Virus record (IMG/VR): IMGVR_UViG_3300005609_000008
Span: 1-60,854 of that record
Origin: a virus
Lineage: Duplodnaviria; Caudoviricetes
Direction: 5' to 3' (one strand)
Length of the DNA: 60,854 bases
Under the pieces are notes generated by a model. The model ran no database searches and was not told where the DNA came from. It worked only from the letters and a program-made list of their open reading frames with translations. The translations under genes were made by a program, and so were the position numbers. Positions 16,426-51,904 of the stretch are shown here, piece by piece (position 1 is the first letter of the stretch; each line of letters opens with the position of its first letter).

Positions 16426-19400
16426 TTAAAAACAAGTGCATGTAACGCTAATTACTGTAGCACCATCATTAGTAATAAGTTGTGATATACAAGCATTCCA
16501 AACCTCAGTAGGAATAAGTGTCTGAGAAACAGGTGTTCCAACACAATCAACATACTCAAGTGTTAAATTACTTCCAGTATTATTTTCCCATGTATATGAG
16601 TTACAAACACAAACTTGATTTGAAGTTAATGCAATTATATCATCAGTAGCAATGTTTACAGTAGTTCCTGTTATTGTCCACTTACAACCATCCCCACTTA
16701 GTAATTCTACTTTATCTCCAACTGAAACTGCAATAGAAGATGTCACTGTTCTAACTTCATTAGTAACACATTCTTGAATTGAATAGTTTGAAGGAACAGG
16801 GTTGCAATCACAAGTCACAAATTCTATATCTATTCCTATTTTTGGTTTAAGTGACGATGCACAAATAGTTTCAACTACTGGACTATTAACATCTATTTTT
16901 ACTAATAATCCATTACAATCTATATAATTAACAGATATACTACCTCCTATGGTGTTTGTAAGTGTATATTCATTACAAACGTCACTGCAATCTTCACCTG
17001 GATAAGTGTTTATTATGTTAGTATTAACAGTTCCAAACTCAGTAAATGATATTACTTTAAATTTACAATCAGGCTCGTTGTCAATTTGAACTATATCACT
17101 TACAGTGTAACTTGAATTATTTGCGATATATGTGGTAGGACTTGTAATACCTGGTGTTTCACATCTTTCTACAATTACCTTAGAAGGTTCACTACTAGGG
17201 CATTCACAACTTGTCCAAACTAAATCAAAATCAGGTTGTGGTGCTGCATCTTTAGCACATATATTTTTAAAATTTCCTACTTTAATATCTTCATTTATAA
17301 CTACACCATTACAATTAGTATATATAAAATCAACTGTTGAAGCATTATTAGTTACTGTATAAAAATTACATACTTCACTACAATCTGCAGCAGTGCTTAA
17401 TCCTGTAGAAGTAGCGTCTGCAGGACCAGCATTTGTTTCAGAAACAACAACATACGTACAGTCTGCATCTTCATTTATAGTAATTAAATCACCGATATTA
17501 AACAGACCACTATTTACTATAGTAACTTGATTAAAACCATTTGTACTCCAATCTATTACACATCTTTCAGCTATTAAGAATGGTGCAATAGGATCACACT
17601 CACAATCTTCAAGAGTAATAATAATTCCTGGTGTTGCAGAAATCTCTTGAGCACAAATAACCAAATCATCATTTGCTAGAACTGTAGCCGTTACTGAATC
17701 TCCATTACAATCTATGTAGTCAACATCTGTATCAACTCCATTAGTTTCTTCTAGTTGATATTCTTGACAAATATCTTCACATGTCGTACCTGAAGGTAAT
17801 ATAGCAGTAACAGTTGCAGTCGCTGCCGTTGGTGTTACTGCTCCAATTTCATAAGTACATGCATTAATAGTAACTAATTCCCCTGTAGTATATACGCCTT
17901 GAACTGTTTCAGTTTGCACAACCCCATCAGCTCTACATTGTGTAGCTATAAAAGTATCAGGTTCTGAACAACCACAACACGAATCCAAAGAATCTACAGT
18001 TGAGTAACATAACTCTGCAAAAACAGGAGACCTGTAATCATATATTAAATACAAGTAATCACCAGACGTTCCTGCAGGCATTATAAAGTCTCCCAAGTAT
18101 GTACTTGGTGCTCCTGAAGAATTTACTGGTAATTGAGTAGAAGCGTTTAACAATGTTTGTATTGATGCAGGTGTATTTGAATATAACGTTGCTGACCTTA
18201 AATATTTAAAATTCATAGGTGGTGTTACAAAAACAAAATCATCTGTCGGTGGTATCTTATTCGAAATAATCGAAACAATTGCTCCATCAGCAGGAACAAC
18301 TCCTGCACCTTGAACACCTGCAACTGTACTATATTGTGATACATTAGGTGAGTTTGGAGATGACAAAAATTCAATTTGTTCTTGGTGTAATGGAGAAATA
18401 AATGGTCCATCAACCCATCGATATTGATTATGAATAAATTGACCTGCATCTGAGTTATTAGTAACACAGACTTGTACAATACTTAATGCTTTGGCATCTA
18501 CACAACTAACTGTATAATCTATAACTGCTGACGCAGTTCCATCAAAAGTAAGGTTTAGAGTATCTGTTAAAACTAAATTTTTAATTACTGTGATTGTGTT
18601 TAGTCCATTAACTAAATTTACTACTTGAAGTGTTGTTCCATATTCAGCTTGTGCTTGAAGAGAACCACTAGTTAAATCAGAAACATTAAGTGTTATAGTT
18701 ACTTCACCCACTAAATCTCCTACATTAAAACAATAATTAATAGTTGTTCCGTTAAAATTTAATAGTTGATTAATCCCACATTCAACACAAGGCACATCAA
18801 TTGGAAGCAACTCATCATTAATAGAAAAAACATACTCATCCATATAAGGGTCGTACCCTCCTAGTTTTTGATTATTAGGAGATGATATAAATTTATCTCT
18901 AAACCATGAACGCATTCCTGCATCGGATATAACTGTAAGTTGTTCATTAGAATATGCACTACCTTTTAGTTGAATTAATGCTCCACGTTTTTGGTCAGAA
19001 AAATATTTATCAAATCCATATTGTGCAAAACTTTCAGGGTTAAAGCTTATCCCATACTCCTCTAGTCTAGCTATTTGAGTTCCAAGAACTTCTGGAACAG
19101 ATGTAATAGCTCCTCCTGGAACTGAATCAGATAATAAATTTTTACCTGCTAGTACATATGATATTTTATCTTCTTGTAATGTAAGTATGTCAGTAGCTCT
19201 AGCGAATAGTTTTTCAATAGGACCGAATGATTCTTCTGTTCTTTTAAAATTTAAAAGTCCAAGGTTAAACTCATTAAGTTTATTTACGTTACTTTCATCA
19301 TTGTATATACCACTATAAGTAATGTCTGCAAACCTATCAGCTTCTCTATAATCTTCTGCAGATGTAGTTGTTACTCTATTACCTAATAATAATGGTTTTC

Positions 19401-22400
19401 CCACTATTGAATCTCTAATCTTGTAACTTTCTACACCATTACCAAAAGAAAAACAATTAAAAAATGATGTGTCAATAATTGCAGGATTAGTTGCGTCTTG
19501 ATCTTGAACATTTCCAAGATGCACATCTTGATATGGAGTGTTAGTAATTGTTACATCTGCAGGGTCATCAGGTGGAGTAGATGGTGATATTATAGCAGAC
19601 CCACAATCTGTCCATGATGCTGCCGAATCTCCTGGCTGAAGAACAAGTTGAGATTGAATACCATCTAAAGTGTATACAAATGCAATTGGGTTAGATTCAC
19701 TAGAACCTACTTGAAACACAGTTTTACAACCTCCAGTGGCAATGTCAAATGTTTGAGCACCTTCATACCAAACATCTGGTAGTGCATCAGTAGGCTCTGT
19801 TTCAAATACAAGTGTAGATTCAGCTCTAAATATTTGCCATGTTGCAGTAGCTCTAGACCTTCTTTTCTTAGTTGATCCACAAGCTCTAGTACCTGACATT
19901 ATAAAACGTATCTCTTGAGTATTAGGGTGTTGAAACCATCTATAATAATTTGTTCCCAACGCAGGCGTAATTCCATATCTATTAAATGGATTTGAAGATG
20001 TTGCCGTAGTTGGTATGTACACATTCTCTACATCTCCACCAGTACCACCAACTTCTTGCGTTCCTGTATTTAAAACTGATTGAATATTATCTCCATTAAA
20101 CCACTCAATAATATCATCATAATCAGTAGATGCAATTAAACTAACATCTAAATTATATTTTCTACGTTCACATGCATTATTACCTTTTTGAGGTCCTCTT
20201 CTTTCGAATTCAAATGTCATTTGTATTCTACTACCTGCAGGAATAGTAAGGTTCTGATAATTACCTGCATCATCAGGCTCTGCAAATCCTTTATAGGCAA
20301 GTACAGGATAGTTATCATTTCCTCTTACTGTTATAGACTGCTTACCTGGTAATATAAAAGGGTCAGGTCCTGTAGCTGTAGAAAAATCTTGAGCTTTTAT
20401 TTTCATATAAGTCCCTGAAGGAATATTTATTTCTTTTCCATTTTCATCAGTTGGTAAAGGGTCAAGAAAATCTCTTTCTTGTGCTTGCTTATCTAAAATT
20501 GTAGCATAAGCACATCTTAACAAAGAACCAGTTGTGTCAGCTTTAACAATTAACCTGTCTCCTGTTTCTACTTTTCTTTGGTTTTCCCCTTCTAATAAAA
20601 AGTACGTGTCATTGGTAGCAGGGTCTGTAAAAAATATATTGGTATAAACTGTTTCGTAAGTTTCTGCATTAGGTTTTATTGCAAATCTATATTTAGTTGC
20701 CCAATACGGAGGTTTCTGTTGAGGTGGTATTGAAACCCTTATAAAATTTTTAAGGTCAGCAAAGCTACAAGGAACGTGTTCAGTATTTAATGGACTAACT
20801 AAAGCAGTTGAAGCTCTATTAAAATCATCCATATAAACTATACCTATTTCGTAATCTCTATTACTATGAAGACTTTTGGTATTACTAAGTTCTTGATAAG
20901 TAACTTCTGCATTACTCCATTTAAAATATTCATAGGCACTTTGAGTTGGAGTTGTAGTATTGTCTACTCTTCTCATAGCAATTAATCCTATAGAAATTTC
21001 ATTAGGAGAACTAGGAGAAGCAATAATTTGTAAAGGTTGATTTACTGCTGAAATACCACTTTCATATTTAGTCCAAGAAGTTGGAGAGCCACCATCTAAT
21101 ATATTAGGGATAACACAGTTAATATTGTCAGTAAATGTAACCCCATCACAAGAAGTTTCAACTAGTGGGTCAATATTAAAAATAGGTTTTATATTGCTAG
21201 CTATACCTATCTTTTCTTGAAAATCTAAACTACTAGCTAATTCGTATGCATTATTAAAATCTTGAGGCAACACATAACTGAATTGAACTTCTAATGAACC
21301 ACTTGTTTCAGTTGGAGTATTTCCACTAAAAGCACTATGTTCAATAGTTGCGTCAATACTTAAAAGACCACCTGCTTTTAAATCTACATCTAATTCAATT
21401 AGTAACATTGAATCTGAAATAACTACCGAACCATCAATACTGTATGTAATAGGAATAAAATTATCCTCTATTTCAGTAAGACCTATATTCTCGCTTATTA
21501 ATTCAGTAACATACTCAAATCGTACAGGGGAATTGTTTTTATCAACTAAATTATAATTCTCTATATAGTTACCATACATTAGTCTGTTACCCATAATTGT
21601 TTGAGCTTTAGCTAATAAAGGAACATTGTCATATAATCTAAGCAGTTCTGAGTCTGGGAGTATGGTAAATATTTTACTATTTCTAAAATTAAAAGTATAT
21701 TCGGTATTATCTGCTAAACCTAATTCAGATTTTTTTAATTTTTCAATTACTTTTATAAAAGTACCATCACTGTCTTTAAAAAGTAAATCAATTGCAGTAA
21801 CTAAAGGTCCTCCTGAATTATATGTTATAACGGCAGTATTAAACCTATTAATAGCACCTTCATTTAAAAAAGATTCTGCACTAAAATCAAAAGCTTTAGG
21901 CTGAAAAGCTGCATCTGTAAATTGTGAAACGGCAGAATATTCATCATCTTGGTATTCATATCTGTAAGCAAAAGATATAAACCTTTCTTCTAAAAAATTT
22001 TCTTGTCCACCACTAGTAACTGTTAACTCTATTTCTGGAGCTTTAGCAGGTGGTTTTTTGATAACTAACAAAGACTCTCTTAAAAGGCTTGCATTACCTC
22101 CACCATCAACCAAAGGACTTCCTAAAGGGTCTGGGTAACTTCTTAGTATATTAATAAACCTTGGAGGATTGTAATCATCAGTCCAAAATAATAATCCATC
22201 AATAACATTAATTCCAGTTATTAAATGTTTATCATCAAAGTTTAATACTGTTTGTGATGATGTACCTCCATCCGAAACACTTATTACTAAATAGGATAAA
22301 ATGCTTGTTACTACATTAAACGAGACAATTAAGTCTAACTTTCCTGAAGGACTTGTAGAACCAAACGCAGGGTCAGTTACAAACCAATACAAAGTATCAT

Positions 22401-22638
22401 TAGCACCATCGTCTACAGCACCAATACACTTTGCTTGGTTACTTAAAAGAACTCCTTCGTATGATAAGTTCGTAAGCTTAGTATTTCCTTTAGAATTTTC
22501 TACTGCTCCAATCTCGGTTGATTCAGATGATCCTAACCTAACATTTACTGCGTCAATATATTGTCCGTTTGGAACGAGTCTTTCGTCAACGGACTTATTC
22601 ATTTTACCTGCTACAAAGTTTCTTGAAAGTTTAGCCAT
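16426..22638 (-). CDS. Tail muzzle/stabilisation (tubular B-like) protein with Cys-rich C-terminal repeats
   Basis: N-terminal F.AGKMNKSVDERLVPNGQYIDAVNVR, LFWTD..NPPRFINI, FAYRY.Y.D.EYS and NRLMYGNY are typical of crAss-like stabilisation proteins. Confidence 0.7.
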   Translation of the reverse strand: MAKLSRNFVAGKMNKSVDERLVPNGQYIDAVNVRLGSSESTEIGAVENSKGNTKLTNLSYEGVLLSNQAKCIGAVDDGANDTLYWFVTDPAFGSTSPSGKLDLIVSFNVVTSILSYLVISVSDGGTSSQTVLNFDDKHLITGINVIDGLLFWTDDYNPPRFINILRSYPDPLGSPLVDGGGNASLLRESLLVIKKPPAKAPEIELTVTSGGQENFLEERFISFAYRYEYQDDEYSAVSQFTDAAFQPKAFDFSAESFLNEGAINRFNTAVITYNSGGPLVTAIDLLFKDSDGTFIKVIEKLKKSELGLADNTEYTFNFRNSKIFTILPDSELLRLYDNVPLLAKAQTIMGNRLMYGNYIENYNLVDKNNSPVRFEYVTELISENIGLTEIEDNFIPITYSIDGSVVISDSMLLIELDVDLKAGGLLSIDATIEHSAFSGNTPTETSGSLEVQFSYVLPQDFNNAYELASSLDFQEKIGIASNIKPIFNIDPLVETSCDGVTFTDNINCVIPNILDGGSPTSWTKYESGISAVNQPLQIIASPSSPNEISIGLIAMRRVDNTTTPTQSAYEYFKWSNAEVTYQELSNTKSLHSNRDYEIGIVYMDDFNRASTALVSPLNTEHVPCSFADLKNFIRVSIPPQQKPPYWATKYRFAIKPNAETYETVYTNIFFTDPATNDTYFLLEGENQRKVETGDRLIVKADTTGSLLRCAYATILDKQAQERDFLDPLPTDENGKEINIPSGTYMKIKAQDFSTATGPDPFILPGKQSITVRGNDNYPVLAYKGFAEPDDAGNYQNLTIPAGSRIQMTFEFERRGPQKGNNACERRKYNLDVSLIASTDYDDIIEWFNGDNIQSVLNTGTQEVGGTGGDVENVYIPTTATSSNPFNRYGITPALGTNYYRWFQHPNTQEIRFIMSGTRACGSTKKRRSRATATWQIFRAESTLVFETEPTDALPDVWYEGAQTFDIATGGCKTVFQVGSSESNPIAFVYTLDGIQSQLVLQPGDSAASWTDCGSAIISPSTPPDDPADVTITNTPYQDVHLGNVQDQDATNPAIIDTSFFNCFSFGNGVESYKIRDSIVGKPLLLGNRVTTTSAEDYREADRFADITYSGIYNDESNVNKLNEFNLGLLNFKRTEESFGPIEKLFARATDILTLQEDKISYVLAGKNLLSDSVPGGAITSVPEVLGTQIARLEEYGISFNPESFAQYGFDKYFSDQKRGALIQLKGSAYSNEQLTVISDAGMRSWFRDKFISSPNNQKLGGYDPYMDEYVFSINDELLPIDVPCVECGINQLLNFNGTTINYCFNVGDLVGEVTITLNVSDLTSGSLQAQAEYGTTLQVVNLVNGLNTITVIKNLVLTDTLNLTFDGTASAVIDYTVSCVDAKALSIVQVCVTNNSDAGQFIHNQYRWVDGPFISPLHQEQIEFLSSPNSPNVSQYSTVAGVQGAGVVPADGAIVSIISNKIPPTDDFVFVTPPMNFKYLRSATLYSNTPASIQTLLNASTQLPVNSSGAPSTYLGDFIMPAGTSGDYLYLIYDYRSPVFAELCYSTVDSLDSCCGCSEPDTFIATQCRADGVVQTETVQGVYTTGELVTINACTYEIGAVTPTAATATVTAILPSGTTCEDICQEYQLEETNGVDTDVDYIDCNGDSVTATVLANDDLVICAQEISATPGIIITLEDCECDPIAPFLIAERCVIDWSTNGFNQVTIVNSGLFNIGDLITINEDADCTYVVVSETNAGPADATSTGLSTAADCSEVCNFYTVTNNASTVDFIYTNCNGVVINEDIKVGNFKNICAKDAAPQPDFDLVWTSCECPSSEPSKVIVERCETPGITSPTTYIANNSSYTVSDIVQIDNEPDCKFKVISFTEFGTVNTNIINTYPGEDCSDVCNEYTLTNTIGGSISVNYIDCNGLLVKIDVNSPVVETICASSLKPKIGIDIEFVTCDCNPVPSNYSIQECVTNEVRTVTSSIAVSVGDKVELLSGDGCKWTITGTTVNIATDDIIALTSNQVCVCNSYTWENNTGSNLTLEYVDCVGTPVSQTLIPTEVWNACISQLITNDGATVISVTCTCF

Positions 22639-30485: not shown

Positions 30486-32651
30486 TTATCTAATTATTTC
30501 ACTACGATTTCCTTTATTGTTATATCTAGCAAAGTTAACAATAATATTTGATTGTTTTTTTACAGGTTGATAAAGGTGTCTTTGACAAGCCATTACTGCT
30601 AAACCTGAACTAATAGATGCATCAAACTTAGTTCTATTGCTAATATCAAACTTTGCCCAATCTTCTAATGTTCTACTAAAAGGCATATAACCCATTTCAT
30701 CTTCTTTAACTAGTCCTACATATGTTTCAATATAAGACTCAATAGCTGCTGCGTGAGCTTGTTTTACTGCTTCACTTGAGTTAGGTATACCCCCAAGTTC
30801 TTTTTCTGTCTTAGAGAGCTTGTGTTTAAGTTTATCTGGTCGATTTATACTAAAGCTTCTATACCCTCTATTTTTAAAATGATATAATAACCTAGGTTTA
30901 TTATTCTCTACTAATATAGGCATTCCATAAAAAACACACGCCATCAATACTTCCTCAAAAAATATTTCGGCAGTTTGAGGTCTTGCTACATACTCTAAAA
31001 AAAACTGATTACTAGGAGCATCATCCATATTAAACTTTGTAATTCCATGCAATGCCCCATTAGATGCACCTCCTCCAACAGTTCCTGATATGTCATAACT
31101 ATCACACCCAAAAGCACCAAGATGCTCATTTAAAGGAAAAAAATCTCCCTTGTTATTTTTCTTGTACCTATTTTGCATATTCTTTTTAGGAAGCCATCCT
31201 ACTAAAAATCTTCCTCTAGTGTTAGGAGTCCATATTACTTCAGTATCCTTAATTCCATTCTTCCAAGAAAAAGAGCCACGAGTTGTATGGTGTTCTTGTA
31301 TAAGTGAATCATTGTAGTCTATTTGCTGATATATTCTTGTAAGATTAAACAATGATTGTTTGCTCTCATCCCTAAACGCATGCGATTCAGTACGAGGAAA
31401 TTGTCTGTAAAACTCATTTAATGCGTCAGGATCATTTTTTAAACTTTCAACTTCATTATTCCAATACTCTATAACATCATCCATAGGCATACCATACTCA
31501 TCTATATAACCCTCAAAGTTCCACTCCATAGGGATGAAAAGTGAATATAACCCACTTTTGGTTTGACCATTGTTACTTCGTTCATGTGGATTAGAATCGT
31601 AATACAGTTTCTTAAACTCTTCACCTCCTTTACTAAGAGAGTTAGATGTCGAACCCATCATACATTTACCAATTACTCTTCTACCCAATCTTAAACAAGT
31701 TTTTGTAACACGATAATTATTTAGTATATTGTTAGGCTTTAGCCATTTACCACTTTCATCATGAGCTAGTAATAAAAGTTTTTCCCCATCATAAGAGTTG
31801 TCATCTGTATTCTTCCAGTCAATGGTTGTGTCAAGACCTTCCATCTCTTCATTATCAACATTGTACATATTCTTTTTTGTAATCTTTGATGCAGGAATTC
31901 TAAAAGCTAATTCAGTTTTTGGTTTATCCATACCATCCTGAACAGGTTTAAAAAAGAACGGATAGTTTCTTACAATTGGGACAACCTTGTCTGTAAACAT
32001 TTTTTTGGCATCAGACCCAGACTTAGATAATATTCCTATACGAGAGTTTTTAGATATTGTTGCTACATTTGCACACTCTTCAGATGCCATATATGAAAAG
32101 CCTGAACGTCTGATTTTTAAATATATCATGCCAAAACATCTAGGGTCTGCTTTACAAGCCTCCCAAAAAATATAAAAAATTCTGTTAGCCTCTCTAAAAT
32201 CTGGATAACCAACATCAATCTTTGTCCATTGAAGATACATATAATGTGACCCAGTTATATATGTACTAATGTTCTTGTTTATAAACCAATAGCCTTGCTC
32301 TCTTTTATCAAACTCACTTTCAATATAGTCCACCCATTGAGCTTTAAAAGTATTAGGATGCTCATTCCATTGAAATATAGATTGTATTTTTAGAATTGTC
32401 TTTGGTGGTTCTTTTCTTTCCCACTTGTTGTTGTCTTTTTGAATAGACTCTGGAGCTTTAGGTAATCCAATCCTAAGTCCGTTAATTTCATATACCTCAC
32501 CTATCTCGCCTGTTTTAGAAATTATAACAACATCATATTTTTCATCATAGCCATATTTCCATGACCTATTTCTATTCTTTTTTTTAAGAATACCTTTAGG
32601 TATGTAGTTATCTATAACTCTGTATAAATTATGAAGATCTTCGTTCTGCAA
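30486..32651 (-). CDS. terL: Terminase large subunit
   Basis: Walker A-like KIRRSGFS, Walker B LLLAHDESGKW, coupling motif GST, nuclease motif GCDSYD. Confidence 0.85.
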   Translation of the reverse strand: MQNEDLHNLYRVIDNYIPKGILKKKNRNRSWKYGYDEKYDVVIISKTGEIGEVYEINGLRIGLPKAPESIQKDNNKWERKEPPKTILKIQSIFQWNEHPNTFKAQWVDYIESEFDKREQGYWFINKNISTYITGSHYMYLQWTKIDVGYPDFREANRIFYIFWEACKADPRCFGMIYLKIRRSGFSYMASEECANVATISKNSRIGILSKSGSDAKKMFTDKVVPIVRNYPFFFKPVQDGMDKPKTELAFRIPASKITKKNMYNVDNEEMEGLDTTIDWKNTDDNSYDGEKLLLLAHDESGKWLKPNNILNNYRVTKTCLRLGRRVIGKCMMGSTSNSLSKGGEEFKKLYYDSNPHERSNNGQTKSGLYSLFIPMEWNFEGYIDEYGMPMDDVIEYWNNEVESLKNDPDALNEFYRQFPRTESHAFRDESKQSLFNLTRIYQQIDYNDSLIQEHHTTRGSFSWKNGIKDTEVIWTPNTRGRFLVGWLPKKNMQNRYKKNNKGDFFPLNEHLGAFGCDSYDISGTVGGGASNGALHGITKFNMDDAPSNQFFLEYVARPQTAEIFFEEVLMACVFYGMPILVENNKPRLLYHFKNRGYRSFSINRPDKLKHKLSKTEKELGGIPNSSEAVKQAHAAAIESYIETYVGLVKEDEMGYMPFSRTLEDWAKFDISNRTKFDASISSGLAVMACQRHLYQPVKKQSNIIVNFARYNNKGNRSEIIR

Positions 32652-32964: not shown

Positions 32965-33528
32965 TCATAATTTAATTGTTATTTGATGATCAAACATTCG
33001 ATAAAGTTTTTCACCATCCACTTCAAACTCATACTCGCTTTCTGGTTTAAAACATATTTTGTCTCCTGGATTTACATTTTGTGAACGTAAATACTCATTG
33101 CTATATTTTATTTCACCCACCAATGGCTCTTCATTAGTGTTTTTATATAGATAATAATCTTCAGTAGGAACAGGTTTTGTAAAGCAATACCTTCCATTAG
33201 TATTCCACTCTTTACCATCATGATACATATAAAACTGATCAGGCTCAACAAAAAACAAATCATTCATAAAATAACTCCTGCCACTTTTTCTTCTACCCTG
33301 CATGTCATTGTAAAACTTAAAAACATTGTGATGAACTAAAAGTTTATCTCCTGGCTTTATAGGACCATCATAAACGATAGGTGTGGCTATCACCTCAGCA
33401 ATACGATTAGATGCTTTGTGATTTTCCTCGGAGGTGCTTGTTATAAAGTCTACTCCACCTATATTTTTTGTATTGTTATATCTTTTATTGTCTAAAGGAG
33501 TAGTTATAAATAGGTAAGGTGATTTCAT
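32965..33528 (-). CDS. Tandem GroES-like co-chaperonin domain protein
   Basis: Two halves, each with a V/I-x-PGDK-hydrophobic motif; ends FEVDGEKLYRM, like GroES. Confidence 0.55.
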   Translation of the reverse strand: MKSPYLFITTPLDNKRYNNTKNIGGVDFITSTSEENHKASNRIAEVIATPIVYDGPIKPGDKLLVHHNVFKFYNDMQGRRKSGRSYFMNDLFFVEPDQFYMYHDGKEWNTNGRYCFTKPVPTEDYYLYKNTNEEPLVGEIKYSNEYLRSQNVNPGDKICFKPESEYEFEVDGEKLYRMFDHQITIKL

Positions 33529-33758
33529 TAGAAGTTAATATTATATTCGACAGATACAGGCATATTAATAAACTGTTTCCACAAAACAATTTCTTTATTG
33601 TATGTAGATTCAATCCATACTTTAAAAGCATCTACATTTTCATCATATCTTATGTGATGTATTTTGTAAGTACCTTTTAATATTTCTTGCCCAACAACAT
33701 AGTGCATAGCCCCTCCTTTGTAATCAGGACCAACTGCTATCTTACGAATATCATTCAT
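33528..33758 (-). CDS. Hypothetical protein (76 aa)
   Basis: First gene after a promoter; translationally coupled to the next gene. Confidence 0.7.
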   Translation of the reverse strand: MNDIRKIAVGPDYKGGAMHYVVGQEILKGTYKIHHIRYDENVDAFKVWIESTYNKEIVLWKQFINMPVSVEYNINF

Positions 33759-33779
33759 TTAATTAGATTTAATTTATAA

Positions 33780-33787
33780 CAAATATA
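33780..33787 (-). promoter_or_regulatory. TAnnTTTG promoter element for the packaging operon
   Basis: TATATTTG on -, directly after a terminator. Confidence 0.65.
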
Positions 33788-33790
33788 ATG

Positions 33791-33823
33791 AAAAAAAAAT
33801 ACCCCTGAATTAACAGAGGTATT
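33791..33823 (-). terminator. Intrinsic terminator
   Basis: AATACCTCTG-ttaatt-CAGGGGTATT followed by a T tract on -. Confidence 0.8.
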
Positions 33824-33827
33824 CTAA

Positions 33828-33916
33828 GCGAAGAGGAGACCCTAATTGGAAACATCTCAAGGATGGCTTCCTAATTGCACACCTCTCAAAGACGTGATAT
33901 TAATTGAGCTCCTCGC
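33828..33916 (-). ncRNA. Candidate structured RNA (three-way junction, 3x CAAUUA at 29-nt period)
   Basis: GC-rich intergenic island; taattg at 33843, 33872 and 33901; outer stem plus two hairpins with YUUGA loops. Confidence 0.5.
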
Positions 33917-33921
33917 ATATT

Positions 33922-34842
33922 TTAATTAAAAGACCTTTGAGCATTACCTGTTGACCCTTGAGTTATTGTGTAATTATTTACAACTTTAGGATTACTGCCA
34001 TCATATTGATATTTTAATGTTACGGCATTTGATAAATTTCCAAAAATATAAGGTAACTCATGGTTTGTATTTGTCCATGTAGGGTTTGGTATTCCTATAG
34101 CAAATTTCATTATAATTTGTGAGGTACGATAATCATTTGGATTATTATCATAATTCACATTATTAGCAGGTCTTGTAACTGAAAATCGTGTACCCCAATA
34201 ATCTAGTGTTGTTGTCGCAGGAAGTGATGTCACTTCTGTTGGATTTACGAGATCAAACAAAAATCCTAAAGGATTAAAAGGAACTTCAATATATGTAGTA
34301 GGTCTTAGCGAAGCAAAGTCAGTTATCAATGACCCTGTCTTAGCAATCTTTAATTCACTATTTATATCCCATTCTGTTGGAATAGGAAATAACACAAGAC
34401 CACCATTGGTAGTTTGAGCACTTGATGCCCAATTGCTACCTGGGAAATTAGCTCTCTGATATTCTCCATTGTTATGAGGAGGGTGAATAAAGTTTTGCTT
34501 TTTCATTATATACGAAGAACTACCACCAAAATCTATTAGTTTAGTTTTTGACTTTCTATATCTAAACATAAAAAGCCTAGGATTTTTAGTTAACCAATCT
34601 GTTTCAATTGGTTTTTGCATAGCAACAAAAGCTTTATCATTTTTTGTAGTTGCATCAACATATGGTCTTTTTAAAACATACATATAGGGTGTAGGAATAT
34701 CATCAGCTTGTCCTATGTAAGTTTTTAAACCATCGACAGTAATATTTTTAGTTACATCTGTGGGTGTCCCATTTGTTTGAGTGATAACTATCTTATCATC
34801 ACCTTGAGGTGCAACTGTATTATATGAACTAATTTTTGGCAT
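33922..34842 (-). CDS. Putative virion appendage protein (306 aa)
   Basis: N-terminal MPKISSY...DDKIV...TKNITVDGL resembles a fibre anchor peptide. Confidence 0.45.
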   Translation of the reverse strand: MPKISSYNTVAPQGDDKIVITQTNGTPTDVTKNITVDGLKTYIGQADDIPTPYMYVLKRPYVDATTKNDKAFVAMQKPIETDWLTKNPRLFMFRYRKSKTKLIDFGGSSSYIMKKQNFIHPPHNNGEYQRANFPGSNWASSAQTTNGGLVLFPIPTEWDINSELKIAKTGSLITDFASLRPTTYIEVPFNPLGFLFDLVNPTEVTSLPATTTLDYWGTRFSVTRPANNVNYDNNPNDYRTSQIIMKFAIGIPNPTWTNTNHELPYIFGNLSNAVTLKYQYDGSNPKVVNNYTITQGSTGNAQRSFN

Positions 34843-35892: not shown

Positions 35893-37923
35893 CTATGGGG
35901 TGCAGGAGGTAAAATTAGGTTTTGGTTGTGTCCAAGTTGAAGAAGTTCCATCACTAAAAGATTGACAATTAGTAACATTTGGATTCACACTCCATCCACT
36001 TAAATCTTGATTCATTGCAGAAGGACTTGTAACTAAAAACATAAAAGACATATTTGTAACACTACTCACATCCCAAGAACTTATATCTTGATTAAAAACT
36101 TTGTTTTGTATAAACATAAATTGCATATTATTCACACTACTCACATCCCAAGAACTTATATCTTGATTAAAAGTAGTATTGGAAAACATTTGTGACATAT
36201 CATTTACACTACTCACATCCCAATTATCAAGAGGTTGATTAAAAATAGTAGCAAAACCAAACATATCTTTCATAGTAGTAACACTACTCACATCCCAAGA
36301 GTTTAAGCTAGAATTAAAAGCAGTATTACCATAAAACATTTGTCTCATATTTGTAACACTACTCACATCCCAACTACTAATGTTTTGATTAAATGAATCT
36401 GCATCTCTAAACATAGAATCCATATTTTCTACACTACTCACATCCCAAGAGTTTAAGCTAAAATTAAAAGCAGTAGCTTTATAAAACAAATAACCCATAT
36501 CCTCTACACTACTCACATCCCAACTACCAATGTTTTGGTTAAAAGCAGTATTGAATGCAAACATATAGTACATAGTAGTAACACTACTTACATCCCATCC
36601 ACTTATGTCTTGATTAAAAGGAGTGAATGAAAACATAGCACGCATATTTTCTACACTACTCACATCCCAACTACCAATGTTTTGATTAAAAGGAGCACCA
36701 CTAAACATCTCAAACATATCATTTACACTACTCACATCCCAACTACCAATGTCTTGATTGAAAGAAGTTGCCTGACCAAACATTCTACTCATAGTAGTAA
36801 CACTGCTAGTGTCCCAAGCACCAATATCTCCATTAAAAGTAGATTTAGACACAAAAGCATTAGACATATTAGTAACTAGACTTACATCCCAATCTTGTAT
36901 CTTTCCGTAAGGGACAAGATCATAGTCTCCATTAGGGTCTTGAGCTAGTATATCATTAATTGCAGTTTGAAATGTTGCATCAGTTAATTGACTGGGATTT
37001 ACAAAAGGTGGTTTGGATAATATCCAACTTGGTGTATTAGTATCAAAGTCAGTATAATTAGTAACTAGACTCACATCCCATCCACTTAAATCTTGGTTAA
37101 AACTTGTTGCATCTTTCCACATCTCTTTCATGTTGTTCACGTTGGAAGTGTCCCAAGAAGTAATGTTTCCGTTAAATGATATAGCATCTTCAAACATGCT
37201 AAACATATTTGTAACATTATCTACATCCCAACTGTTTAAAGATTTATTAAATGAAGTTGCATTCTGAAACATAAAACTCATATCAGTTACACTGCTCACA
37301 TCCCAATTGCTAAGAGGTTGGTTAAAAACAGAATTACTTCTAAACATATAACTTATAGTAATTACATTACTAACATCCCAATTATTTAAAGGTTGATTAA
37401 AAGCAGAATTTTGAAACATTTGTTGCATATTGATAACACTCCCAACGTTCCATGAACTTATGTCTTGGTTAAAAGAGGTAGTATTCAAAAACATACCATC
37501 CATAGTAGTAACATTACTTGTATTCCAATTTAAATCTTGGTTAAAAGATGATGCTCCTCTAAACATACTTTGCATAGTAGTAACACTACTTGTATCCCAA
37601 GAACCAATATCTTGATTAAAAGAAGTTGCACCTCTAAACATATCACTCATAGTAATCACACTAGACGTATCCCAAGAACTTATATCTCCATTAAAAGTAC
37701 TTTTAGATTGAAATGCACTCGACATATCTGTTACTTGGCTAACGTTCCAATTTTGAATCTTGCCATAAGGTGCTAAATCATAATCCCCATTGGGGTCTTG
37801 AGCTAATATATCTGTAATCGCTTGATTAAGTGTAGCGTCAGTTAGAGGCAGAGAACCACCTCCCCCTGCACCAATTGCTGAGGATGTTGAAGATCCTATA
37901 CCTACTGCAATGGATATATACAT
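35893..37923 (-). CDS. DUF285/BspA-like repeat protein, probable head fibre
   Basis: About 20 [17 protein letters not shown] repeats in two duplicated modules; short hydrophobic N-terminal peptide followed by a Gly linker. Confidence 0.85.
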
Positions 37924-45500: not shown

Positions 45501-45707
45501 ATGAAGAAAAACAAGATTACAATCGAAGTGGACAACCATCTTTCAAACAAGATAACGTTTGAGACTTGGTTGAAAAGTGACAATGTCATTGAACTATCGA
45601 AAGATGGAGTATCATTTTGGGCAAGTCAAGATGCTCAATACCGAAACAAGTTGTACACTAGGCAAGATGCTTGGAACTACTATCAGAAAGAATTTATTAA
45701 TCAGTAA
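45501..45707 (+). CDS. Early hypothetical protein (68 aa)
   Basis: First + strand gene; leader CACAGAATT-ATG. Confidence 0.7.
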   Translation: MKKNKITIEVDNHLSNKITFETWLKSDNVIELSKDGVSFWASQDAQYRNKLYTRQDAWNYYQKEFINQ

Positions 45708-45720
45708 ACCAATTAGAACT

Positions 45721-45894
45721 ATGAACAGAATACTCAAACACATTGTATTGCCGAGTGGATTACACGCATTACAGACAAGGCAAGATGGTAGTGATATCAT
45801 CAGAACAGAAATCTTCACTGAAGAAGAATACCAACACTTTACGTGGTGGAACAGAACTAAATTTAAACTTAACCTTTTAACCTTAAACAACTAG
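45721..45894 (+). CDS. Early hypothetical protein (57 aa)
   Basis: Start re-assigned to the ATG after the leader motif. Confidence 0.7.
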   Translation: MNRILKHIVLPSGLHALQTRQDGSDIIRTEIFTEEEYQHFTWWNRTKFKLNLLTLNN

Positions 45895-45898
45895 AATT

Positions 45899-46162
45899 AT
45901 GAGAAACATTTATAACATTTACGGCTATGACCTAAAGAACGGATTTTGCTTTGAGAACATTGACTTTTCAAGCAAGAAAACTGCACTAGATTCACTTGCA
46001 TATCTCCGAGAATATTGGATGAAAAAGTTAGACTTATCTTCAGCAAATGTGCTGAACATTGGAACTACAGAAGATGAACAATTTGTGGTGGAGATTGATG
46101 ACAGAATCCGACTTACCATCACGAAGAAACCGATTTACACACAAGTATTAAAATACGTTTAA
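45899..46162 (+). CDS. Early hypothetical protein (87 aa)
   Basis: Leader motif followed by ATG. Confidence 0.75.
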   Translation: MRNIYNIYGYDLKNGFCFENIDFSSKKTALDSLAYLREYWMKKLDLSSANVLNIGTTEDEQFVVEIDDRIRLTITKKPIYTQVLKYV

Positions 46163-46182
46163 CCATTAAAACAATTAGAATT

Positions 46183-46755
46183 ATGAGAACAATTAAGCAA
46201 TCAGTATTTAGAGAATTATCGAACAGATTTGGTGACAATGAGTTCACTAGAAAAGACATCCAAAAAGCCGTTTGGAATGCTCAAGGATTTAACGCAGATG
46301 AGTTCACCTACAGACAAGGTTACTACGGCATCAACATCAAGAATTGGAATGACTATGAACGTCTAATTGAAAGGCAATCAAGAGGTCGCTATGAGTTGAC
46401 CAAAGTCGGCAAGAAGTTCGCTACTTGCAGTTATGAAGATGGAGTTGCCTTGATACGTGAGAACAACAAGAACGTGCTTGAAAGACGCAAGGCTAAAAGA
46501 GAGGCTAATAGAAAGGCTCTACCACCTCATATCCTTCACGCAGACAAGTTCCAACATTTGAGTGGACTGACCATCACTAGAGTTCGTTATATGACTCCAA
46601 TTGAACTATCACATATGGATTGGCATCAGTCTCCAATTGTATTTGAGATGTCTGATGGCTCACTAATGTTTCCACAGATGGATGACGAAGGAAATGATGG
46701 TGGAGCAATGGCACGTATCAAGGATGGCAAATGGGATATTTGCTACACGATTTAG
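46183..46755 (+). CDS. Early protein (190 aa), possible N-terminal winged helix
   Basis: Leader motif; GRYELTKVG wing-like segment; C-terminal DDEGNDGG motif. Confidence 0.7.
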   Translation: MRTIKQSVFRELSNRFGDNEFTRKDIQKAVWNAQGFNADEFTYRQGYYGINIKNWNDYERLIERQSRGRYELTKVGKKFATCSYEDGVALIRENNKNVLERRKAKREANRKALPPHILHADKFQHLSGLTITRVRYMTPIELSHMDWHQSPIVFEMSDGSLMFPQMDDEGNDGGAMARIKDGKWDICYTI

Positions 46756-46765
46756 TCCTACAAAA

Positions 46766-46851
46766 CACCAAATCCAGTATTCGCCTCACTATGAAAATAG
46801 TGGGGTTTTGGTGGTGAAAGCAATGACGTTTTCACTTAAAAACAATTAGAA
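46766..46851 (+). promoter_or_regulatory. Double-hairpin element 1
   Basis: 9-bp stem with GAAA loop, then GGTTTTGGTGGT, a second stem and the leader motif. Confidence 0.6.
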
Positions 46852-46853
46852 AA

Positions 46854-47081
46854 ATGAGTAAAAATTTAAACAACGACCAAAGGATCAAACGAGGTCACAA
46901 AGACGTAAAAGGTCTTGGAACACTAGCATCAACTATCCTAGTAATTGAGTTGCAACAACTCATCGAGCAGAGGGTAAAAGAGGTGCAAGAAATCACGAGT
47001 GGAACACGAGTAAATCCATTCGTATCAAACCAAGCCGTAGTGCAAGTATTAGAAACATTTATTAACCCAATTAACAATTAG
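46854..47081 (+). CDS. Early hypothetical protein (75 aa)
   Basis: Leader motif followed by ATG. Confidence 0.75.
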   Translation: MSKNLNNDQRIKRGHKDVKGLGTLASTILVIELQQLIEQRVKEVQEITSGTRVNPFVSNQAVVQVLETFINPINN

Positions 47082-47086
47082 AAATT

Positions 47087-47482
47087 ATGACTACAGAACA
47101 AATTTTAGACCAACTACACGACAACACGATTCACGCAATCCAAGTCGAATTGCTTGAGATTCTTCAAGCCAATGACCTTGCAAATAATGACAAGGCATTA
47201 AACGAAACCGACTACGAGTTTATGAATATGCTACTAAAAAAGTTCTTCAACAAAACACACTATCAGAAGGCTTACTATCTGTTTGGAGATAGTGCAGTTC
47301 AGATATTTGATGATGAAGGAGTAGATGCCTTAATTGAGGCTTACGAAGACAACGAAGTTGGATACCTTACTTATTGCTTTGACCAAAGCAAAGATACACC
47401 TACAGACCTCTTGTATGAGGCTCAAGGGATGAACGACTTTTCCGTAATAACTGAAGAAGAATATAATAAATTAAATCAATAG
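47087..47482 (+). CDS. Early acidic hypothetical protein (131 aa)
   Basis: Leader motif followed by ATG. Confidence 0.75.
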   Translation: MTTEQILDQLHDNTIHAIQVELLEILQANDLANNDKALNETDYEFMNMLLKKFFNKTHYQKAYYLFGDSAVQIFDDEGVDALIEAYEDNEVGYLTYCFDQSKDTPTDLLYEAQGMNDFSVITEEEYNKLNQ

Positions 47483-47487
47483 AAATT

Positions 47488-47796
47488 ATGACTACAAAAA
47501 TCAAATTAAGAGATGGATTTCCACAAGGATATCTACCACAAGGAATCACCTACAAGAACTACACAATGCTTGTAGCAATCGCTAACTATTCTGACAACGG
47601 CTCTTGTTGTGGAACTGCACACACTCTCATCGAAGAGGTTGCATCCATAGAACGCAAGAATCAACTTGTAGATGGGTTAGGAGGCTTTATGACTGCCGTT
47701 TGCAGAGGCACGTTTACAGAGGCTTGGAAAAGAGCAGACCACTCTAATCGCAAGGCACTAATCGAGGGACTAACCAATAACGAGATAGAGCTATGA
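47488..47796 (+). CDS. Early hypothetical protein (102 aa)
   Basis: Variant leader; GGFMTAVC.G....AW.RAD..N motif. Confidence 0.75.
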   Translation: MTTKIKLRDGFPQGYLPQGITYKNYTMLVAIANYSDNGSCCGTAHTLIEEVASIERKNQLVDGLGGFMTAVCRGTFTEAWKRADHSNRKALIEGLTNNEIEL

Positions 47797-48056
47797 TACA
47801 GACAACAGAAGATTTTTGGAAGGCTACCACATGGAATGCTATAGAAGGGCTTACGATACCATTTGATGACGTTTATGCGATACTTGATGAGAATCGTGGT
47901 GAGGTAGAAGAACATAGCTTTATACTACGAGGTAATCCATACGAAAGGATGAGTTACAACGATAGACTCAGCTACACCCTTAACTTACTATCAAAACGTA
48001 AGTTTCTATTATACCTAGACAAGTATGGTAACATATATAATGGAGTAGTAATGTAG
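47793..48056 (+). CDS. Early hypothetical protein (87 aa)
   Basis: ATGA coupling with the upstream gene. Confidence 0.7.
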   Translation: MIQTTEDFWKATTWNAIEGLTIPFDDVYAILDENRGEVEEHSFILRGNPYERMSYNDRLSYTLNLLSKRKFLLYLDKYGNIYNGVVM

Positions 48057-48073
48057 AGGAACAACCTCAACCT

Positions 48074-48151
48074 CATCAAATGCCTTGCACAGAAATGTGC
48101 GAGGTTTTGGTGGTACAAGGCGATATTGCCTTGCATTTAAAACAATTAGAA
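48074..48151 (+). promoter_or_regulatory. Double-hairpin element 2
   Basis: Same architecture as element 1 with different stem sequences. Confidence 0.6.
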
Positions 48152-48153
48152 CG

Positions 48154-48330
48154 ATGGCAAAAGCAATCACAGATTACACCTTAGATGGTGATGGAACACT
48201 GACAACATTTGTCGGTAAAGAAGTACACAATGTTATGTATAATGTAGACACCTTTTTTGAGGCTCAGATGCATATCAGTGAACAGAACAATGAACTATTT
48301 AACAAACATTTATTAATCAGAAACAATTAG
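48154..48330 (+). CDS. Early hypothetical protein (58 aa)
   Basis: Start re-assigned to the ATG after the leader motif. Confidence 0.7.
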   Translation: MAKAITDYTLDGDGTLTTFVGKEVHNVMYNVDTFFEAQMHISEQNNELFNKHLLIRNN

Positions 48331-48334
48331 AATT

Positions 48335-48673
48335 ATGAAGAATTATTACAGAGAATTAAGACACAATCCACCAACACTAGAGGTGGTAAAAAATCCAAAG
48401 AGAGTAACACTAAAAATGGTTGCGTGTATGTGCGACAATCGTTCAGAAATCAAGTTTATAAAGACAGAAGATTTTTGGAGGGTATGGTCAGTTCTTCCGA
48501 GTGGAATGGGCAACGCAATGAGCAACTATCAGTTCGGTTGTGGTGCAACTGGAGGTGGCTTTAAAGCTAGTGCTGACGACCTATGTTGGATGGCTCTAGA
48601 AGGCGATTGGGATGGAATCCTAAAGACCATTAATAGTGGAACTGCAGTAATAGAAAAAGTAAGAAGTTTATAA
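48335..48673 (+). CDS. Early hypothetical protein (112 aa)
   Basis: Leader motif followed by ATG. Confidence 0.75.
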   Translation: MKNYYRELRHNPPTLEVVKNPKRVTLKMVACMCDNRSEIKFIKTEDFWRVWSVLPSGMGNAMSNYQFGCGATGGGFKASADDLCWMALEGDWDGILKTINSGTAVIEKVRSL

Positions 48674-48693
48674 CCATTAAAACAATTAGAAAA

Positions 48694-48936
48694 ATGAAGA
48701 CACAAAATTTAACATATGTCAATGAAGAAAATGAACAAGTAGGTTTGTTTCTTCTCAATACTCTAGAAGGTAAAAAAATATGGAGTATGAGCCAAACAAG
48801 TGATGAATTAGAATCTCTAGTTAGGAAATACCACAGAAAGAATGGTATTACTAATTGGAAATTTGCAGACAACTATGACGAAGGTATAGATTGGGTTTGC
48901 TTTGGAGATTTATTTAACAATTTAAAAAACAATTAG
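48694..48936 (+). CDS. Early hypothetical protein (80 aa)
   Basis: Leader motif followed by ATG. Confidence 0.75.
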   Translation: MKTQNLTYVNEENEQVGLFLLNTLEGKKIWSMSQTSDELESLVRKYHRKNGITNWKFADNYDEGIDWVCFGDLFNNLKNN

Positions 48937-48940
48937 AAAG

Positions 48941-49294
48941 ATGAAACAGATTATTAGAAAAAATGACATCCAATCAAGATTGGAATCAAGAGAATGTACA
49001 ATAGTAGAAGTAAACCACATATGGCATCAGCCATCAGACCGATGGATATACATCGAGAAACACGAAGATAATTGGATTGGCTTAAACTTTATGCAAGGCG
49101 ATGAGTACGAACTATTCAAGGAAGAATACTGCATTGAAGATAGGGCATTGAGTACGTTCTTTGATGAGATGAAAAATGATGAACTACCTTTTGATCTTCA
49201 ACTCGAAAAAGATGGAGATGTGGAATACATCGATAAAATCATATGGATATTTTATAAAGCAAAGGCAAGTATATTTAACTTTTCAAGCCTATGA
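48941..49294 (+). CDS. Early acidic hypothetical protein (117 aa)
   Basis: Leader motif followed by ATG. Confidence 0.75.
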   Translation: MKQIIRKNDIQSRLESRECTIVEVNHIWHQPSDRWIYIEKHEDNWIGLNFMQGDEYELFKEEYCIEDRALSTFFDEMKNDELPFDLQLEKDGDVEYIDKIIWIFYKAKASIFNFSSL

Positions 49295-49440
49295 AAGCGA
49301 CCTTAAAATTTAAGACTGACAGAGGTACAGATTGGTATCTTACTAAAGAGTTTGCTGACAAGAAACATATGGATAATTTTATTGGATACATATGTAGGAC
49401 AAAGTTTGGATACTCTCTAGATGAGGTATTTCCAGAATAA
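49291..49440 (+). CDS. Early hypothetical protein (49 aa, MKATLKFKTDRG...)
   Basis: Hand-translated; ATGA coupling. Confidence 0.65.
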   Translation: MKATLKFKTDRGTDWYLTKEFADKKHMDNFIGYICRTKFGYSLDEVFPE

Positions 49441-49538
49441 CAAAAGTGGGATGCGTAGACGCACTTGTATGGAGCAAAACCATATCCCACATCTAACTAG
49501 GATAAAGTCCCTTCCGACTAAAATGGGCGATTTAAATT

Positions 49539-49781
49539 ATGAGTGAAATGGAACAAGAAAAAATCGTAAGCCTCAATGCAGACAAATCCTTGCGTAGAGC
49601 ATTGGACATCAAAGAGGCTAAAGACCTTTTAAAAAGAGAAGGATTAGAAATTATGAGTAAAAAAGAATTAATTAAAAAAATTGAATGGATTATAGAAGGT
49701 TTGGAAGTAGGAGATAATATTTTCAAAGTAGTCCAAGATATAGATAAATTAATAAAAGAAGAGAAAAACCAAAACAATTAG
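49539..49781 (+). CDS. Early hypothetical protein (80 aa; possible internal start at 49653)
   Basis: ORF track; contains an internal ATTAGAAATTATG. Confidence 0.65.
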   Translation: MSEMEQEKIVSLNADKSLRRALDIKEAKDLLKREGLEIMSKKELIKKIEWIIEGLEVGDNIFKVVQDIDKLIKEEKNQNN

Positions 49782-49785
49782 AATT

Positions 49786-50028
49786 ATGAGTGAAAAAATA
49801 TTAGTAAGCGATAGTAGATTTCTAGAATGTGTAGATGAAATGGCTACACAAATCACCGAAATGAATTTTGGTGAAGAAACTTACATAGAACTAAAAAGTG
49901 ATTTGGATAACCACGTTAGAATGTGTTTTACAGATGAGGCACAAGACTTTTATAATGACAAATTTGATGAGTATGAAACATTAATCAACAACACATTAAA
50001 TGTGTGGAATAAACAGAGAGAATTATGA
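49786..50028 (+). CDS. Early acidic hypothetical protein (80 aa)
   Basis: Leader motif followed by ATG. Confidence 0.75.
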   Translation: MSEKILVSDSRFLECVDEMATQITEMNFGEETYIELKSDLDNHVRMCFTDEAQDFYNDKFDEYETLINNTLNVWNKQREL

Positions 50029-50270
50029 GTACAGAAAACACGTTCAACATCTACCATTATAGTGATGGGATGACAAGAAAGTACGGCAATGAAAACAACC
50101 TAGAAATAGAAGATGCCGTAGAAAATTTGATTTACTACGATATTGTAAGTAGTAAATATTCAGAAGAAGAACTGCAAGATAAACTTGAAGAAATGCAGTC
50201 TGATTTTTGGATTGGGAGTAGATGGTATGAAATTAAAATATCCAAAAACAACTCAAGACATGGAGAATAA
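50025..50270 (+). CDS. Early acidic hypothetical protein (81 aa)
   Basis: ATGA coupling. Confidence 0.7.
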   Translation: MSTENTFNIYHYSDGMTRKYGNENNLEIEDAVENLIYYDIVSSKYSEEELQDKLEEMQSDFWIGSRWYEIKISKNNSRHGE

Positions 50271-51754: not shown

Positions 51755-51766
51755 ACAATTAGAATT

Positions 51767-51904
51767 ATGAAAGTAAAAAATGAAAGCCTAGAAAATAAAC
51801 TAAAATTTTGGAGGCAAAGCCTAAAAAACGCAATGATTAAGGGCGATTTAAATTATGCAATGCATTGCGATACAATTATTAATAAATTAAAACAAGAATT
51901 ATGA
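51767..51904 (+). CDS. Early hypothetical protein (45 aa)
   Basis: Hand-translated; leader motif followed by ATG. Confidence 0.65.
   Translation: MKVKNESLENKLKFWRQSLKNAMIKGDLNYAMHCDTIINKLKQEL

Follow-up and report, generated by a model that had tools for sequence, protein, structure and literature searches.

Genomic setting of the element

The window analyzed here is a complete, linear virus record of 60,854 bases (CheckV completeness, 100%), whose TerL finds its nearest relatives, at 45% identity, in podoviruses of Flavobacterium, Cellulophaga and Tenacibaculum. The carriers of the three-armed RNA described below are a group of uncultured marine Flavobacteria phages; phages of marine Flavobacteria are abundant, and their RNA biology is, to our knowledge, almost unknown. 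The minus strand is the coding strand for all genes neighboring the element. A holin and an M15 peptidase are encoded upstream of the gene p306, and the terminator behind the element is followed by p76, a GroES-like protein, p95 (95 aa) and TerL, in this order. The main features are, along the coding strand:

33922–34842, minus strand: p306, a 306-aa gene of unassigned family (ORF), the last gene before the terminator
33917–33921, minus strand: A/U-rich linker AAUAU from the stop codon to helix P1 (read from the sequence; 5–18 nt in relatives)
33828–33916, minus strand: 89-nt three-way-junction (3WJ) RNA of three tandem 29-nt units (covariation and covariance model R1)
33788–33825, minus strand: intrinsic terminator, a 12-pair hairpin with a U-tract, 2 nt after P1
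33780–33787, minus strand: TATATTTG, a match to the Bacteroidetes -7 promoter box (TAHHTTTG), present in all aligned relatives
33528–33758, minus strand: p76, first gene downstream of the element (ORF list and relatives)
30486–32651, minus strand: TerL, about 1.2 kb downstream of the 89-nt element and on the same strand

Family searches matched p76 to no family, and the gene is kept clade-wide whether the element is present or absent; the terminator is also retained in relatives devoid of the element. PMC6847099 gives TAHHTTTG as the consensus Bacteroidetes -7 box, and TATATTTG is likely, from its sequence, the promoter of the operon formed by p76, the GroES-like protein, p95 and TerL. ARAGORN detected no tRNA or tmRNA gene in the window. 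Elsewhere on the minus strand, a 676-aa protein with repeats of about 25 residues (35893–37923; 18 copies of a DNA repeat of 75-nt period) is encoded directly upstream of the lysis genes, and two giant late ORFs span 1530–11333 and 16426–22638 (3267 and 2070 aa, respectively).

Architecture of the three-way junction

Read on the minus strand from 33916 to 33828, the element consists of GCGAGGAGCUC, AAUUA, a hairpin with a UUUGA loop, CAAUUAG, a hairpin with a CUUGA loop, CAAUUAG and GGGUCUCCUCUUCGC. Its parts, with their columns in alignment A1 (see below), are:

33906–33916, minus strand: 5′ strand of P1, GCG-AGGAGCU-C (columns 1–11)
33901–33905, minus strand: junction strand J1, AAUUA, which can pair with J3
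33877–33900, minus strand: hairpin P2, loop UUUGA at 33886–33890 (columns 17–40)
33872–33876, minus strand: junction strand J2, AAUUA (sequence and A1)
33848–33871, minus strand: hairpin P3, loop CUUGA at 33857–33861 (columns 46–69)
33843–33847, minus strand: junction strand J3, AAUUA (sequence and A1)
33828–33842, minus strand: 3′ strand of P1, G-GG-U-CUCCU-CUU-CGC, with a bulged U and a CUU bulge (columns 75–89)

A sequence-only reading of this stretch had drawn attention to three copies of CAAUUA at a 29-nt period, two of them as CAAUUAG, and to the loops and stems around them, and every one of these items is present. CAATTA occupies positions 33901–33906, 33872–33877 and 33843–33848 of the minus strand, the period is exactly 29, and two of the three cores have the form CAATTAG. 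The same reading described a GC-rich island between a stop codon and a terminator, which is accurate: the p306 TAA stop (33924–33922) lies five bases 5′ of the element, the terminator is in place with its hairpin and T-run spanning 33825–33796, and the GC fraction is 0.42 over 33810–33899 compared with 0.24–0.34 in the flanks. A bulge sits in the same spot of all three arms, giving a pseudo-threefold design. In the window's copy, P2 contains one G-G mismatch and is unlike P3 at 9 of 22 positions.

Covariation and folding strand

Taken alone, the window sequence folds no better than chance: the 106-nt fold has an MFE z-score of −1.23, with 24 of 200 shuffled sequences folding equally well, and the MFE structure is a rod-like alternative at −25.6 kcal/mol, against −16.7 kcal/mol for the consensus 3WJ. 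Relatives tell more. Searches around TerL relatives gave 591 matches, of which 80 loci were kept, and p306 relatives gave 33 loci; alignment A1 contains 26 distinct copies drawn from these TerL- and p306-relative loci, nearly all of exactly 89 nt. The 3WJ pairs in 90.8% of the cells of these 26 relatives, a figure that counts sequences and not independent events, compared with 68.8 ± 1.2% after shuffling, a level that none of 500 shuffles raised to the observed one; pairing falls to 34–52% when the partners are slid. Compensatory changes on both sides occur at 22 of the 26 pairs, and all nine pairs of P2 as well as all nine of P3 show a both-side change in some relative. Unaided, RNAalifold predicts the same 3WJ, with 23 of 24 pairs compensated. 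A covariation check across homologous intergenic regions, which the sequence-only reading had put forward, thus comes out in favor of the structure, while its folding check gives a split answer: the junction emerges from the aligned relatives, but the single-sequence MFE is the rod. A register in which CAAUUAG instead forms the loops of three small hairpins was rejected, as only 68.5% of its cells pair.

Wobble pairs identify the strand. The class A/B alignment contains 54 cells with G·U or U·G and six with A·C or C·A, hence it is the minus (sense) strand that folds, and this asymmetry makes a protein site on duplex DNA an inadequate explanation. The asymmetry, the covariation and the place between stop codon and terminator together bear out the earlier claim of a structured minus-strand RNA.

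The rod-like fold pairs the 5′ half of P2 with the 3′ half of P3, and it competes with the junction because the units are alike. In terms of energy it is the MFE structure of 19 of the 26 class A/B sequences, the window included; in terms of pair counts the 3WJ equals or exceeds it in 26 of 26, and where the hairpins are unlike at four or more positions, the 3WJ forms 176 of 208 pairs and the rod 150 of 208. The rod is a possible alternative conformer.

Within the junction, the RNAalifold structure joins the terminal C and G of each CAAUUAG by pairs that run across helices, with covariation to A-U in the AGUGUAA class. For the AAUU cores of J1 and J3, 100 of 104 cells allow pairing, and L092 and L095 show one G-C compensation; in class C the same two strands form three wobble pairs that lengthen P1. 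Every class has self-complementary cores (AAUU, AGUU, GGUU and GUGU), which provides an internal reason for the repetition of the word. Since the junction strands can pair mutually, the three CAAUUAG words would not all be exposed together, and three free strands are probably, judging from the alignments, not displayed simultaneously. The proposal of a 3WJ displaying three single strands therefore survives in its first half, which the relatives support, and not in its second. Across the 26 sequences, the unpaired bases A12, U14, U28, G30, A41, U57, G59 and A70 are invariant while the helices turn over, and the loop consensus is YUYGN.

Element and terminator fold as separate domains, with z = −3.24 in the window and z = −4.79 in L092, where the 3WJ is the MFE structure; neither the MFE nor the centroid structures of these two sequences contained an antiterminator pairing that competes with the terminator.

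Distribution, sequence classes and linkage to p306

The 89-nt form was described by a covariance model, R1, complemented by a second model, R2. R1 has a sole match in the window, at 88.2 bits, and over 100 fetched loci it gave 84 matches that reduce to 28 distinct full-length sequences of 87–90 nt. Among the 80 TerL loci, it matched all 14 whose likeness to p306 extends to the C-terminus, and none of the 49 that lack a likeness of this kind. Three of these 49 (L014, L015 and L017) are close relatives with a 91% identical TerL; they encode otherwise unrelated proteins that have the first ~45 residues in common with p306, and in place of the element they contain a plain hairpin and a T-run.

Scanning metagenome contigs with the p306 alignment yielded 56 loci, of which 37 were matched by R1 and 14 by R2, four end before or inside the element region, and one, L410, represents a further three-unit class with CAGGUUCUA junctions. 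The element is thus present by R1 or R2 in 51 of the 52 assessable metagenome loci, the remaining one being L410; such locus counts do not represent independent lineages, as the collections overlap. In the window and its relatives, the stop codon lies 5–18 nt upstream and the terminator 2–7 nt downstream of the element, which follows p306 even where the terminator and downstream genes differ (L415, L420, L423, L425 and L426). Distant members of the clade with other genes in the slot had no such element. On the sequences compared, the element moves with p306 as one cassette and is not part of the terminator or of the packaging genes.

Sequence classes diverge widely around a common plan. Relatives of p306 at about 40% identity have a 79-nt 3WJ in the same place, with a P1 of GCAAGCNG and CNGCUUGC, UGGUUYG junction strands, and CUAGU and AUAGU loops; pairing reaches 96.6% over four sequences, and RNAalifold finds 25 pairs in 13 sequences, nine of them compensated. 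In class C, P1 is rich in G·U pairs. L411 and L413 have two hairpins without sequence relation to each other, and still their MFE fold is the junction; in class E, the hairpins are likewise unrelated and the middle junction strand loses the motif. Of the 32 class A copies that are 89 nt long, 10 have exactly identical P2 and P3, while their sequence varies between genomes, which shows ongoing homogenization of the units. Despite this homogenization the unit number stays at three, with units of 28–30 nt: we count about 55 distinct three-unit copies and a single two-unit copy. The latter, a natural version of 60 nt (L398, 2091–2150), consists of P1 and one hairpin, with an internal loop of two CAGUUAG strands.

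No known family accounts for the element. A search of Rfam 15 (4227 models), one of the checks that the sequence-only reading had named, gave no match in the whole window. At E ≤ 10, the region 33700–34050 attracted seven weak matches, none reaching its gathering threshold; the best, PsrR1, scored 18.7 bits where 42 are required for gathering, and most of its alignment fell on the terminator. A blastn search of GenBank phages found no match, and neither Rfam 15 nor narrow full-text literature term searches contained a description of such an element. Three CARYTAG words at 29-nt spacing were sought in 185,579 species genomes and occurred in 54 stretches, none of which R1 matched at E ≤ 0.01 (best E = 0.32); these stretches were rejected as copies of this RNA and represent other tandem arrays. 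Unrelated genomes with 29-nt-period CARYTAG arrays and small hairpins include L348, L300, L291, L327 and L354, among others; they comprise several viral contigs besides a Muribaculaceae MAG and a Bacteroidetes MAG, and R1 had no match in any.

The three-armed RNA is real and appears to be an undescribed structured-RNA family of a known general kind. Weinberg et al. 2010 and Fremin and Bhatt 2021 reportedly described metagenome-derived structured RNA motifs in Bacteroidetes and phages, and the element resembles those in being found by covariation in uncultured, phage-linked sequences and in having no assigned function. It differs in matching none of the 4227 Rfam 15 models, and what is unusual and particular to it is the pseudo-symmetric tandem-unit design together with the linkage to one gene. 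As a new family it is well supported: about 55 distinct copies were counted, falling into four or more sequence classes. Three tandem units build one junction, the number being fixed while helices turn over and cores stay self-complementary, and such a small symmetric natural RNA is suited to structural study.

The p306 protein

The partner gene occupies a variable slot ahead of the packaging genes. Its product has no Pfam, PHROG or PDB match, and none of its 139 homologs is informatively named; a tblastn search over 50,697 phage records returned no match, and Atlas matches score at most 0.83, in the chance range. The AlphaFold monomer is poor (pLDDT 44.5). A three-copy model places an interface at residues 3–44 with an ipSAE of 0.61, compared with 0.00 for the best control. 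In a calibration made on two copies and with other alignments, this mark was attained by 20 of 30 proteins whose solved form is a pair of one chain, and by 1 of 23 whose solved form is a single chain; the runs have at least 56% of contacts in common and a partner pLDDT of at least 49. A homotrimer formed via residues 3–44 is thus predicted. N-terminal modularity is typical of fiber proteins, and the trimer model fits a fiber-like protein with an exchangeable C-terminal part; the N-terminal ~45 residues also occur in the otherwise unrelated proteins of L014, L015 and L017; the model is silent on RNA binding. Being bound to a single orphan gene family in an exchangeable, fiber-like slot, the RNA offers a handle on how a host-range-type protein may be tuned or assisted. 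A link with a diversity-generating element (DGR) or retron was dropped: the window has no match to the reverse transcriptase family PF00078, which the control genomes did match, and no template-like repeat of the 3′ end of p306 was found.

Early-gene leaders and the CAAUUAG word

The heptamer CAAUUAG occupies positions −11 to −5 of ten early plus-strand genes between 46.2 and 51.8 kb, in AAAACAAUUAGAAUUAUG-type leaders, and one further early gene of the window has a CAACUAG leader; the word was thus correctly named as the core of the early-leader motif. Over 45693–51776 of the plus strand, near-identical 20-nt intercistronic leaders of the form TAA-CC-AUU-AAAAACAAUUAGAAUU-AUG precede at least 11 small early genes. 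Behind the final late gene, at 1310–1370 of the minus strand, a hairpin GCCUC-AAUUAA-GAGGC is followed by UCUUUCGC, an echo of the element's CUCUUCGC end, and then by a further copy of the early-leader motif (UUAACC...AAACAAUUAGAAAG) that stands alone, as no ORF follows it.

The sequence-only reading had suggested a sponge that titrates an sRNA at 1266–1376 or an RNA-binding protein. Several facts speak for a sponge directed at an sRNA or protein that recognizes CAAUUAG in early-gene leaders: CAATTAG is over-represented in the window, with 33 occurrences for 14.8 ± 3.8 expected, and the ten leaders of the window are echoed by nine sites in the close relative G003 and ten in G004. However, the leaders do not follow the junction word further. 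G002, a 100%-complete relative with a 3WJ of the same class, has no leader by pattern and one CAACTAG leader by eye; in G006, with UGGUUYG junctions, the word is absent from the 40-nt upstream stretches among the 80 ORFs listed; and a scan for CAGTTAG-type leaders gave at least 118 stretches, of which the 80 listed were all single hits, with no phage bearing such a leader family among them. The pairing of the element with the minus-strand RNA of 1241–1380 is at chance level, 137 of 300 shuffles forming as good a duplex, and for the plus strand, where 12 of 300 shuffles do as well, the result depends on long-looped duplexes. The mutual pairing of junction strands also argues against a display of bait.

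In the CsrB and RsmZ sponges, multiple GGA motifs sit in hairpin loops. Like these, the element is one structured RNA that presents a short motif repeatedly; unlike them, it has the repeated word in a junction, partly paired, the early leaders do not track the motif, and GGA is absent from its loops (UUUGA and CUUGA in the window, YUYGN over the 26 sequences). The leader has an explanation of its own, as it puts A at −3, −6, −12 and −13, which PMC6847099 lists as positive initiation determinants in Flavobacterium johnsoniae; a strong Flavobacterial start region accounts for it. The titration proposal is therefore not borne out, and we regard a sponge as very improbable. The striking heptamer common to junction and early leaders is a cautionary case with no general link behind it. 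A complementarity by eye between the junction word and the starts of p76 and p306 (CUAAUU in the window's p76) was also discarded as A/U-rich chance, class C showing no co-variation.

Functional interpretation

We consider with high confidence that the structure, folding strand, position, linkage to p306 and depth of conservation of the element are, taken jointly, established. Because the element belongs to the p306 cassette and not to the terminator or packaging genes, the simplest functional reading, which we put forward tentatively, is a transcribed, folded and cis-acting 3′-end module of the p306 message. We infer both its transcription within the p306 mRNA and an effect on the fate of that RNA. 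In this proposal, three tandem units of 28–30 nt would fold into P1 as outer helix and P2 and P3 as hairpins, which meet in a junction with a self-complementary core of the R-R-U-U type on its strands. Placed in the p306 3′ UTR directly before the terminator, the element would act in cis at the RNA level; with the terminator hairpin it would make up a compact domain at the 3′ end, about 125 nt long, which could block or steer ribonucleases, or leave a stable 3′ fragment, and so set the fate of the p306 message and thereby p306 yield.

Structures governing stability or processing in 3′ UTRs are known from lambda sib retroregulation, T7 RNase III sites and 3′-UTR-derived small RNAs. The element resembles them as a conserved fold that lies between stop codon and transcript 3′ end (in the window and 52 related loci it lies on the coding strand between stop codon and intrinsic terminator), and it could likewise determine what becomes of the message upstream, or give rise to a stable 3′ fragment. 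It differs as a 3WJ of a fixed number of tandem units tied to one gene family, with no Rfam or sequence relation to these systems. Several considerations weigh against the cis-acting module. A second structure needs a reason of its own, as protection of the 3′ end could come from the terminator hairpin alone; the conserved unpaired bases hint, from the alignment, that the element has a specific partner or a tertiary fold and is more than a barrier; and the energy favors the rod in 19 of 26 class A/B sequences, though pair counts favor the junction.

A specific partner is the substance of an explanation that we find unlikely but worth weighing, in which three modules, each made of a helix end, a bulge and an RRUU strand, bind three copies of a protein or a homotrimer, the candidate being p306 itself, for autoregulation or assembly. 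The pseudo-threefold design with its bulge in the same place of three arms, the conservation of junction and loop bases next to variable helices, the strict linkage to p306, and a modeled trimer that passes (0.61 against 0.00) would all fit, as would the change of junction words class by class alongside p306 divergence. This last co-variation is, however, inseparable from shared descent; p306 has no recognizable RNA-binding domain or known fold (monomer pLDDT 44.5), the predicted interface covers only residues 3–44, which also occur in L014-type proteins whose genes lack the RNA, and the middle junction strand of class E has no motif. Its more specific form, in which the pseudo-threefold symmetry of the RNA docks a p306 homotrimer or another threefold protein as a co-evolving operator or assembly partner, is rather improbable; if true, docking on the p306 trimer would make the element an RNA cofactor for a phage fiber. 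On a bold reading, the self-complementary cores would allow switching between junction and rod, or intermolecular pairing. The partner could also belong to the host. A decoy soaking up a host ribonuclease or defense protein, for example a type III toxin in the manner of pseudo-ToxI, would be kept in the same cassette as a host-range protein, and the element does travel with a variable, fiber-like gene and often has homogenized units (P2 = P3 in 10 of 32 class A copies). Its layout is also suggestive, since type III loci consist, according to PMC5086642, of short tandem RNA repeats and a Rho-independent terminator followed by a ToxN-family toxin gene; the same source indicates that phages can carry mimics and that the threefold symmetry of ToxIN is that of a protein–RNA complex. 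The element departs from ToxI in that its units of 28–30 nt join in a single junction, with a closing helix P1 that is under selection and would be needless for processed single repeats. Its helices vary freely and its units often differ, with 9 of 22 positions unlike in the window and unrelated hairpins in class E. No host copy came to light, none of the 54 CARYTAG stretches from 185,579 species genomes resembling the element as a host antitoxin repeat would (R1, E ≤ 0.01; best E = 0.32). The window has no match to the ToxN family PF13958, though the control genomes of that search were equally silent, and the gene after the terminator is p76, which matches no family. For the antitoxin mimic proposed from the sequence, these searches showed neither a toxin gene nor a host counterpart, and a host-directed decoy is, in our judgment, rather improbable as well.

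Two further explanations look downstream or to the DNA. A P1-closed 3WJ placed 2 nt before an intrinsic terminator, itself ahead of the terminase operon, has the arrangement of a transcriptional riboswitch or attenuator, and a riboswitch-like or put-like RNA could act on the terminator to control read-through into the packaging genes. Against this stand the independent folding of the two domains in the window and L092, with no mutually exclusive pairing, the retention of terminator and TAHHTTTG promoter in relatives devoid of the element, and the attachment of the element to p306 where the terminator differs, and we rate such control as very unlikely. The same neighborhood had inspired the idea of a packaging-related RNA. 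The pRNA of phi29 is a phage RNA with a 3WJ core, encoded near packaging genes, in which two mutually complementary loops serve ring formation, and Rfam holds a pRNA family. The element shares the 3WJ core and the vicinity of packaging genes, but its loops are near-identical and not Watson-Crick complementary, the Rfam pRNA model does not match it, and it follows p306 rather than the packaging genes, which leaves little of that idea. Finally, three repeats at a conventional boundary between lysis and packaging genes might be iteron-like, double-stranded DNA sites for terminase (pac or cos), replication or recombination. The long-range covariation of P1 and the 54 G·U cells against six A·C fit a folded single strand instead, the repeat sequences differ freely between relatives, and the element is missing from L014, L015 and L017, whose TerL is 91% identical; a DNA site is therefore extremely unlikely.

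For the cis-acting 3′-end module, RNA libraries offer one weak indication of expression. A 1001-nt contig from such a library, 92% alike, spans 33668–34643 and includes the element; the evidence is weak because DNA can be present in these libraries, whose contigs carry no information on start, end, strand or level. The RNA-library runs X18–X20 gave short pieces only, in which the uncovered parts carry no meaning. The contig from X16, which covers 33668–34643 in the 92%-alike relative, is self-closing: its ends at 33668 and 34643 are connected through one additional G, at a depth of 19, which may reflect a circular assembly path, a chimera or a real circular template.
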